A stretch of DNA of 64,000 bases, from positions 70,311-134,310 of the forward strand of contig SVTQ01000001.1 of assembly GCA_015063695.1 (NCBI GenBank). Reading direction: 5' to 3'. A program made the translations under genes and the position numbers. The notes under the pieces are model-generated. The model had not been told where the DNA came from, ran no database searches, and saw only the letters and a program-made list of their open reading frames with translations. The stretch comes from Oscillospiraceae bacterium (GTDB lineage: Bacteria; Bacillota; Clostridia; Oscillospirales; CAG-272). Of this stretch, positions 22,741 through 23,083 are shown in pieces. Each line of letters opens with the position of its first letter. The stretch's first letter is position 1.

Positions 22741-23083
22741 AAAAACCTCATAAATCACTGCGGTCCTTCGGGGCCGCAGTTCAGAGTGTAGACAAAGTCT
22801 ACACTCTGAGTGAGACTGAGAGAAACGAAGGTAGATTTGGCGATTTTTCTCTCGTCGGCGGCTGAAGGGGTCCTCAAACATTCTTTGAATGTTTGGGGTT
22901 CACGCAGATACCTACGGTAGAGAGGAAAACTCGCCAAAAGCAGATGTGGCGGGCATTTTGCCCGCCTTTTGCATGTTAGTTATACTTCATCTCGAAATGT
23001 GTGTCACATCTAATTTTTGCACACACATCTGCGTTATACCGAGTTTGTCTTCAGTCTGCACTGCGGCCCTTCGGGGCCGCAGT
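22741..23083 (+). mobile_element. Copy A of an unannotated ~280-bp structured, MITE-like element (core 22782-23058), flanked by a duplicated 25-bp hairpin
   Basis: Long near-identical blocks shared with the reverse complement of 31592-31909. Imperfect 16-bp terminal inverted repeats cagagtgtagacaaag / gtttgtcttcagtctg. Internal intrinsic terminator ggcgggc-atttt-gcccgcc-tttt. Flanking hairpins at 22756-22780 and 23059-23083 are 24/25 identical. Confidence 0.7.

Follow-up and report, generated by a model that had tools for sequence, protein, structure and literature searches.

Two structured elements behind genes are very probably MITEs related to the IS1182 family and inserted beside terminator hairpins

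The two structured elements located downstream of pyrP and of a hemolysin-III gene in the 64-kb window (the whole stretch of DNA analyzed here) are very probably MITEs, non-coding deletion derivatives or relatives of an IS1182-family IS, a reading to which we give a probability of roughly 0.88. They are ordinary mobile DNA of a known kind, not a new regulatory RNA or a new class of element. The element is present in many copies, its ends are those of an IS1182 element, its targets are hairpins that are commonly duplicated whole, it is absent at orthologous loci, and it is complementary to itself over a long fold-back.

Alignment placed two copies of one 232-318 nt repeat in the window, copy A at 22782-23058 on the plus strand and copy B at 31592-31909 on the minus strand. 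The original prediction had located and aligned these two copies correctly, but it gave the first element an extent of 22741-23083 and let both begin within 7 nt of a stop codon. In fact, the repeat starts 47 nt past the stop codon in copy A and 34 nt past it in copy B, because the outer parts of the first interval are flanking hairpin repeats, here the duplicated pyrP hairpin, which lie outside the mobile unit. The features of the two copies are the following.

22756-22781, plus strand: left unit of the target duplication, which is the pyrP terminator hairpin CACTGCGGTCC-TTCG-GGGCCGCAGTT, outside the mobile unit (direct repeat D9)
22782-23058, plus strand: MITE copy A, 277 nt, CAGAGTG...GTCTTCAGTCTG, delimited by aligning 14 copies and by the points at which the duplicated flanks adjoin
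22782-22808, plus strand: left-end terminal hairpin of copy A, formed by the 16-nt left inverted repeat and an inverted copy of it, with a 12-bp stem closed by an AAA loop, matching the left end of a 1521-bp IS1182-family IS at 26 of 27 positions
22812-22827, plus strand: subterminal end-like repeat GAGACTGAGAGAAACG of copy A, which pairs with the right end in the fold-back
22836-22938, plus strand: internal long stem TTTGGCGATTTTTCTCTC / GAGAGGAAAACTCGCCAAA of copy A, capped by a small hairpin and split by another small one nested within it
22865-22901, plus strand: nested small palindromic repeat of the GGGGTCCTCAA...TTGGGGTTC family, a secondary insertion in copy A, missing from minimal copies
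22948-22970, plus strand: internal intrinsic terminator GGCGGGC-ATTTT-GCCCGCC-TTTT of copy A, directed from the left end to the right end (terminator scan)
23024-23058, plus strand: right end of copy A, a conserved 35 nt closing in the right inverted repeat GTTTGTCTTCAGTCTG; invariant in every complete copy
23059-23084, plus strand: right copy of the duplicated pyrP terminator hairpin, with a perfect stem, then a T-run
31564-31591, minus strand: second, unrelated hairpin adjoining the right end of copy B, the terminator of a convergent helicase gene
31592-31909, minus strand: MITE copy B, 318 nt
31592-31626, minus strand: right end of copy B
31680-31702, minus strand: terminator of copy B
31713-31751 and 31793-31829, minus strand: nested small hairpins of copy B
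31883-31909, minus strand: left-end hairpin of copy B
31910-31940, minus strand: terminator hairpin of the hemolysin-III gene, adjoining the left end of copy B
End sequences to find around an autonomous partner: left CAGAGTGTAGACAAAGTCTACACTCTG, right GTTTGTCTTCRGTCTG

Most of what had been described between the two copies was reproduced. The copies agree throughout three 19-nt blocks and differ at 1 position of the 36-nt terminator block and at 2 of the 35-nt right end, and the first hairpin shows the compensatory change that had been claimed, a T-A pair in A becoming a C-G pair in B. The ends are inverted repeats that agree at 13 of 16 positions, with the third end-like motif lying at 22812-22827, and the chance expectation of the end patterns in shuffled sequence is 0. 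The claim that no reading frame is conserved held up as well, as all ORFs in the 232-318 nt element are short, unlike between copies and broken by indels, so that it has no conserved coding capacity. The middle of about 55 nt that was called non-homologous does differ between A and B, but it is not one segment: it consists of an extra nested hairpin of about 41 nt in B (31713-31751, a range that spans 39 nt) and a poorly conserved AT-rich spacer. The blocks aaggggtcctcaaacattc / gaatgtttggggttcacgc (also GGGGTCCTCAAAC.../...GTTTGGGGTTC), identical in A and B, make up a nested small hairpin that is missing from the minimal 232-nt form. The nested small repeat of copy A is missing in L021, L037, L038, L012 and L028.

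These nested hairpins are sites of a tiny palindromic repeat family of about 38-75 nt, whose ends are constant, (A)GAGAACCCCAAG ... CTTGAGGACCCC(T), and whose apical stems vary. In the window, the family is found free after a gene at 27986-28095 and nested at 22865-22901, 31793-31829 and 31713-31751, and four or more such repeats lie in L027:5690-5890. Within MITE copies, the tiny repeats occupy two different sites and can face either way, and at one of these sites an inverted copy of 5 flanking nt accompanies the insertion (GGCGT...ACGCC). Two other repeats were observed. Window positions 60381-60737 hold two and a half tandem 149-nt units that are 99-100% identical, the third 81%, and probably represent a repeated domain inside a coding region. 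In the region downstream of pyrP of a relative (L110:3885-3925 and 4305-4350), CTTCTTTCTGTACGAACAGAAAGAAGCAAAGAGTCG occurs twice within 450 nt among other hairpins and may be another small repeat family.

We then asked how far the element is spread. A scan of one genome per species with an 18-mer of the element revealed 12 copies in the MAG JAZSLF01 ('Eubacteriales bacterium'), each in a different context. Matches of the 18-mer in L015, L026 and about 20 other genomes lay inside unrelated sequence and were discarded as chance, as was a left-end-like 16-mer at window position 1590, inside a PASTA-kinase ORF. In three other assemblies of the window organism, carrying exactly the same pyrP or hemolysin-III protein, the contigs (L002, L003 and L005) end inside the element, the usual sign of a dispersed repeat. 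By comparison of the copies, the unit runs CAGAGTG...GTCTTCRGTCTG and is 232 nt long in its shortest form. The left-end hairpin pattern (27 nt, both variable positions free) recovered 68 metagenome loci, in all of which an unrelated stem-loop directly precedes the hairpin, and in total there are about 30 complete copies in several hosts. Scans of viral contigs with both ends gave 0 matches, as did a metagenome scan with the right end in place of the left-end hairpin pattern, and the minimal element had no blastn match among PLSDB plasmids. Contigs Ga0123355_* and Ga0131853_* (L042-L103), from one metagenome, contain dozens of copies of other short families that share this left-end hairpin, in the form with A-T at stem position 8/20, and whose interior (TTCGAAAAAATGGCAATGCCATTTTTTCGA...) is different. 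Many of these copies are inserted against the internal hairpin of another copy, a self-targeting nesting.

The ends connect the element to the IS1182 family. About a dozen of the 68 loci with the left-end hairpin (L096, L067, L045 and others) hold a 1521-bp IS whose left end is identical at 26 of 27 positions to the 27-nt terminal hairpin of the MITE, and whose right end, ATTTGTCTACAGACTG, agrees with that of the MITE at 13 of 16. The right ends of both also encode a terminal (V/I)CLQ(S/T) alike. The fused transposase of this IS scored 439 bits on the NCBIfam model NF033551 'IS1182 family transposase' (cut-off 270) and carries the Pfam domains DUF772 and DDE_Tnp_1_6; its annotated plasmid relatives, about 55% identical, have the same end design. 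The Sutcliffiella plasmid IS, of the IS1182 family, starts with CAGCTTGTAGAC...GTCTACAAGCT and finishes with GGTTTGTCTACGGTCTG, while ISEfa7 starts with CAGACTGTAGAC...GTCTACAGTCT, which forms the terminal left-end hairpin. Since its ends match those of an IS with an IS1182 transposase, and the design of the annotated relatives, the element is a non-autonomous DDE-type member of the IS1182 family, a MITE. Neither the 64-kb window nor the 12 JAZSLF01 loci contain an IS1182 transposase gene, and the sole autonomous IS whose ends proved near-identical belongs to another host, an AT-rich one, and lacks the internal stem and terminator module.

Regarding the 1521-bp IS itself, its transposase is split in two frames at an A-rich run, GTAAAAAAAAACAAAAAATAG, the second frame being -1 relative to the first. 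The split lies about 640-680 nt from the left end of the IS in L096 (minus strand) and occurs in L067, L045, L104 and L049 as well, L049 carrying a length variant of the run. The same split in several independent contigs suggests programmed frameshifting or transcriptional slippage rather than decay. In addition, a T-run comes right after the left-end hairpin in the autonomous IS1182 elements (L096, L113:311-360 and L114:302-350), resembling an inward-facing intrinsic terminator; an autonomous IS of this family lands on a terminator and brings its own terminator-like end.

Next, we analyzed the flanks. The original prediction had seen no obvious target-site duplication, but copy A is bracketed by a 26-nt direct repeat, identical at 25 of 26 positions (22756-22781 and 23059-23084), each unit of which is the whole pyrP terminator hairpin; the target sequence downstream of pyrP is CACTGCGGYCCTTCGGGGCCGCAGTTTT. 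Among 28 complete copies with both flanks, 17 have a direct repeat of 19-31 nt that corresponds to exactly one whole stem-loop, including copy A and the divergent L102. As the length of the duplication tracks that of the hairpin, DNA structure, rather than a fixed stagger, appears to determine the cuts. In copy B and 10 others, the hairpins on the two sides are different, a pattern typical where genes converge or copies have recombined; the two hairpins flanking B differ, and this copy therefore has no target duplication. Nearly every copy adjoins a hairpin, and 9 of 13 copies have their left end behind the 3' end of an ORF that runs in the same direction. Among autonomous elements, five full-length IS copies lack flanking duplications; around the annotated Sutcliffiella IS, an entire hairpin is duplicated perfectly over 30 bp. 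The hairpins of other copies also serve as neighbors: L028 adjoins the internal terminator of an inverted copy of the element, and the termite-gut copies L080, L082, L093 and L103 are inserted beside hairpins of other copies.

The two units of a duplicated hairpin differ by 0-2 transitions. In winA, L021 and L055, a T.G wobble in the left copy of the hairpin stands against a perfect stem in the right copy. The units of L036 carry their 4-nt loop in opposite senses (ATCA vs TGAT), one being the reverse complement of the other; those of L084 have the same loop, and the mismatched position changes arms (A..C vs G..T). We infer that differences of the L036 and L084 type are later changes or the outcome of template switching in palindromes. 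Strand-asymmetric deamination in a gapped intermediate was considered and is unsupported, as left/right differences are nearly all transitions of mixed direction. L056 is also among the duplicated hairpins that depart from simple direct repeats. L048 and L051 share the left flank and the element and have different right flanks, L051 with a hairpin duplication and L048 running into the flank of L091, reflecting either recombination between copies or an assembly chimera.

The sequences flanking A and B are unrelated to each other. In two relatives (89% and 91% amino acid identity), the interval between pyrP and the dCMP deaminase gene holds a single ordinary terminator and no element. This terminator differs from that of the window, and no exact pre-insertion site bearing the same hairpin was found at these two syntenic pyrP loci. 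Together with the multicopy status and the target duplications, absence from the orthologous locus bears out the MITE option that had been put forward for the element. Just past the stop codons upstream of A and B lies a shared 11-mer, TAAAAACCTCA (22741-22751, and 31935-31945 on the minus strand). It is the 5' arm of the gene's terminator at B and has no partner at A; since it was not found at other copies, its sharing is probably a coincidence or an effect of terminator composition. Downstream of hemolysin-III, a MITE in the same orientation occurs both in the window (31592-32615) and in JAZSLF01 (L023:4306-5385). The two hemolysin-III genes are 72.7% identical in DNA and the element blocks about 85-90%, and the two copies are unlike in their flanking hairpins, in how far they lie from the stop codon and in the neighboring gene. 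These copies could be independent insertions or one old insertion.

Conservation at the level of structure, as originally proposed, was evident from the fold-back. In order, this comprises the left-end hairpin, the subterminal end-like repeat pairing with the right end, and GCAGATGTG pairing with CACATCTGC; the interior holds an 18-bp internal stem, a 5-bp apical hairpin and a variable loop, and the left-to-right intrinsic terminator follows. The predicted fold is very stable (z = -9.3 and -9.2). In an alignment of 16 sequences that included the three divergent lineages L102, L097 and L041, 97.7% of the cells pair, and 19 pair changes are two-sided, compared with 3.0 +/- 1.4 in shuffles and 3-7 in slid controls. 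Half of the internal long stem (9 of 18 pairs) changes on both sides across L102, L097 and L041, and one pair of helix 2 (subterminal repeat with right end) occurs in the states T-A, T.G and C-G. Position 8/20 of the left-end hairpin stem is T-A in 31, A-T in 38, C-G in 2, T.G in 2 and C.A in 2 of 75 distinct loci, that is, Watson-Crick in 71 of them with three different pairs. G.T cells exceed A.C cells on the left-to-right strand by 27 to 5, a weak hint that this is the strand that folds. L102 has a terminator at the same position with a different sequence, and nested insertions inside the stems differ from copy to copy.

Is the element, then, a functional structured RNA, or also one? It could be a 3'UTR extension or read-through sRNA ending at the internal terminator, or a domesticated MITE-borne RNA under selection for its fold. 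The stable fold, the excess of two-sided changes over both controls, the strand bias of the wobble cells, the terminator of L102, which keeps its place with another sequence, the orientation bias behind co-oriented genes and the presence of a copy downstream of hemolysin-III in two species would all fit. However, most of the covariation comes from three outgroup sequences, and any MITE with inverted ends is expected to fold back. Because this complementarity is intrinsic to MITEs and may act in DNA, as a hairpin or cruciform, conservation of structure does not amount to an RNA gene. In Rfam 15, only tRNAs reached the gathering score across the whole window, and at E <= 10 the best matches within 22600-23250 scored 11-19 bits against thresholds of 37-110 and fell on plain hairpins, no family matching the element. 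No promoter-like site was found before the element or in its left part, the module is missing from the autonomous IS that shares the ends, the stems tolerate differing nested insertions, and position is not conserved, the orthologous pyrP locus of the relatives being without the element. These points leave the sRNA or 3'UTR gene that had been offered as a candidate without the standing of an RNA gene, and we consider a functional RNA unlikely. The simplest reading of the terminator, we infer, is that the element carries it to stop transcription coming from the gene it lands behind.

The other class of mobile element that had been suggested, an IS200/IS605-type PATE or REP/RAYT-type element that a Y1 HUH transposase mobilizes in single-stranded form, would agree with the terminal hairpin, the intergenic position beside palindromes and the lack of a short target duplication in the first reading of the sequence. 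Yet the element has terminal inverted repeats (13 of 16) and long target duplications, features that IS200/IS605 elements lack, and no conserved 4-5 nt motif precedes its left end, the flanks being unrelated hairpins. In the one autonomous element that has these ends, the enzyme is a DDE transposase of the IS1182 type and not TnpA, TnpB or RAYT, making a Y1 or RAYT-type enzyme a highly improbable mobilizer. The terminator-adjacent position and the structured 5' part also led us to consider an IscB/TnpB omega-RNA, an IS110 bridge-RNA cassette and a class C group II intron remnant, all dropped because the ends match a DDE IS1182 element and the target duplications are long. That A and B are a local segmental duplication, or unrelated terminator regions alike by chance, might be thought from the just two copies visible within the window, but 12 more in unrelated contexts of another genome, dozens of relatives in other metagenomes, the unrelated flanks of A and B and the 0 matches expected from shuffles leave this practically no room. 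Against the MITE explanation itself count the lack of an IS1182 transposase gene in the window and the 12 JAZSLF01 loci, the different host and missing internal module of the sole IS with near-identical ends, the deletion or replacement of the hairpin by IS1272, the five full-length ISs without duplications and the 11 copies with unlike flanking hairpins.

Our model for the MITE copies is that an IS1182-type DDE transposase, supplied in trans by a partner in this genome, would move them. It would recognize the terminal inverted repeats, the left one of which lies within the terminal hairpin with an extra end-like repeat just inside. The target would be chosen by its DNA structure and not its sequence, as hairpin- or cruciform-forming palindromes, in practice the intrinsic terminators that follow genes. 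The element would be joined to the two 5' feet of the extruded stem-loops, and gap filling would then duplicate the whole hairpin. Read-through of the truncated left hairpin would stop at the element's own terminator, which may make insertions nearly harmless. A bolder version holds two things jointly: that the hairpin-length duplications reflect a distinct structure-directed mode of integration, with an IS1182-type transposase joining at cruciform 5' feet and hairpin-templated gap repair, and that the covarying internal stem and terminator are a selected module, not junk. The near-perfect agreement of the duplicated hairpins, the inverted loop of L036 and the mismatch that changes arms in L084 speak for the first. 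The stem and terminator are kept in at least three divergent MITE lineages and absent from the autonomous IS, and such a module could be a portable terminator, a 3'UTR RNA or a single-stranded DNA fold needed for mobilization. Taken as a pair, these two proposals are doubtful.

Several known systems resemble this one in part. IS1272 and TnSha1 of staphylococci (IS1182 family), whose transposases belong to the family of that of the 1521-bp relative, use stem-loop targets, mostly intrinsic terminators just downstream of genes, inserting in terminator stem-loops without sequence preference; they have 16-bp terminal inverted repeats, and left-end duplications have been described (PMC5678879, PMC4923244). 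In the 'pathway b' of the published model, the 3' ends join the 5' feet of cruciform stem-loops and the whole stem-loop is duplicated, although in staphylococci only deletion or replacement of the target stem-loop was observed (PMC5678879, PMC4923244). In contrast to IS1272, which is autonomous, 1.9 kb long and deletes or replaces its target stem-loop without duplication, the element described here is a non-coding 232-318 nt unit that usually duplicates it. Whole-hairpin duplication, only hypothetical in the published work on IS1272, is thus the dominant outcome among the MITEs here. In ISfinder, direct repeats of the IS1182 family range from 0 to 60 bp.

In Methanosarcina acetivorans, MITEs related to ISMac2 (IS1182 family) are multicopy, non-coding and 160-169 bp long, with inverted repeats that match the IS (PMC3852290). 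They differ from the element here in host domain and in sequence, their reported direct repeats are 0-4 bp, and hairpin-length duplication, an internal terminator and a conserved internal stem are undescribed there (PMC3852290). The IS of Sutcliffiella horikoshii pBH-BAT-167 and ISEfa7 of Enterococcus faecium are alike in the left terminal hairpin, CAG..TGTAGAC ... GTCTACA..CTG, and in the right end, ..GTTTGTCTACGGTCTG. They differ in being autonomous, with a T-run and the transposase gene straight after the left hairpin, and in lacking the long stem and separate terminator of the MITE. IS1397, ISKpn1 and the IS621/IS110 group insert in extragenic palindromes as well, but they recognize specific repeat sequences and make short or no duplications, whereas the targets here are unrelated hairpins and the duplication has the length of the hairpin.

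For annotation, these results remove one candidate 'novel structured RNA'. They also explain assembly breaks downstream of genes in this gut or rumen lineage of Clostridia. A repeat family of this kind mimics RNA motifs in its stable fold, covariation and terminator, and could contaminate screens for the discovery of non-coding RNAs. For the IS1182 family, the copies constitute a large natural sample of insertions, which go to terminator hairpins and commonly leave the hairpin duplicated over its full length. Since terminators are kept or added at each insertion, these elements may reshape the 3'UTRs of their hosts at little cost.
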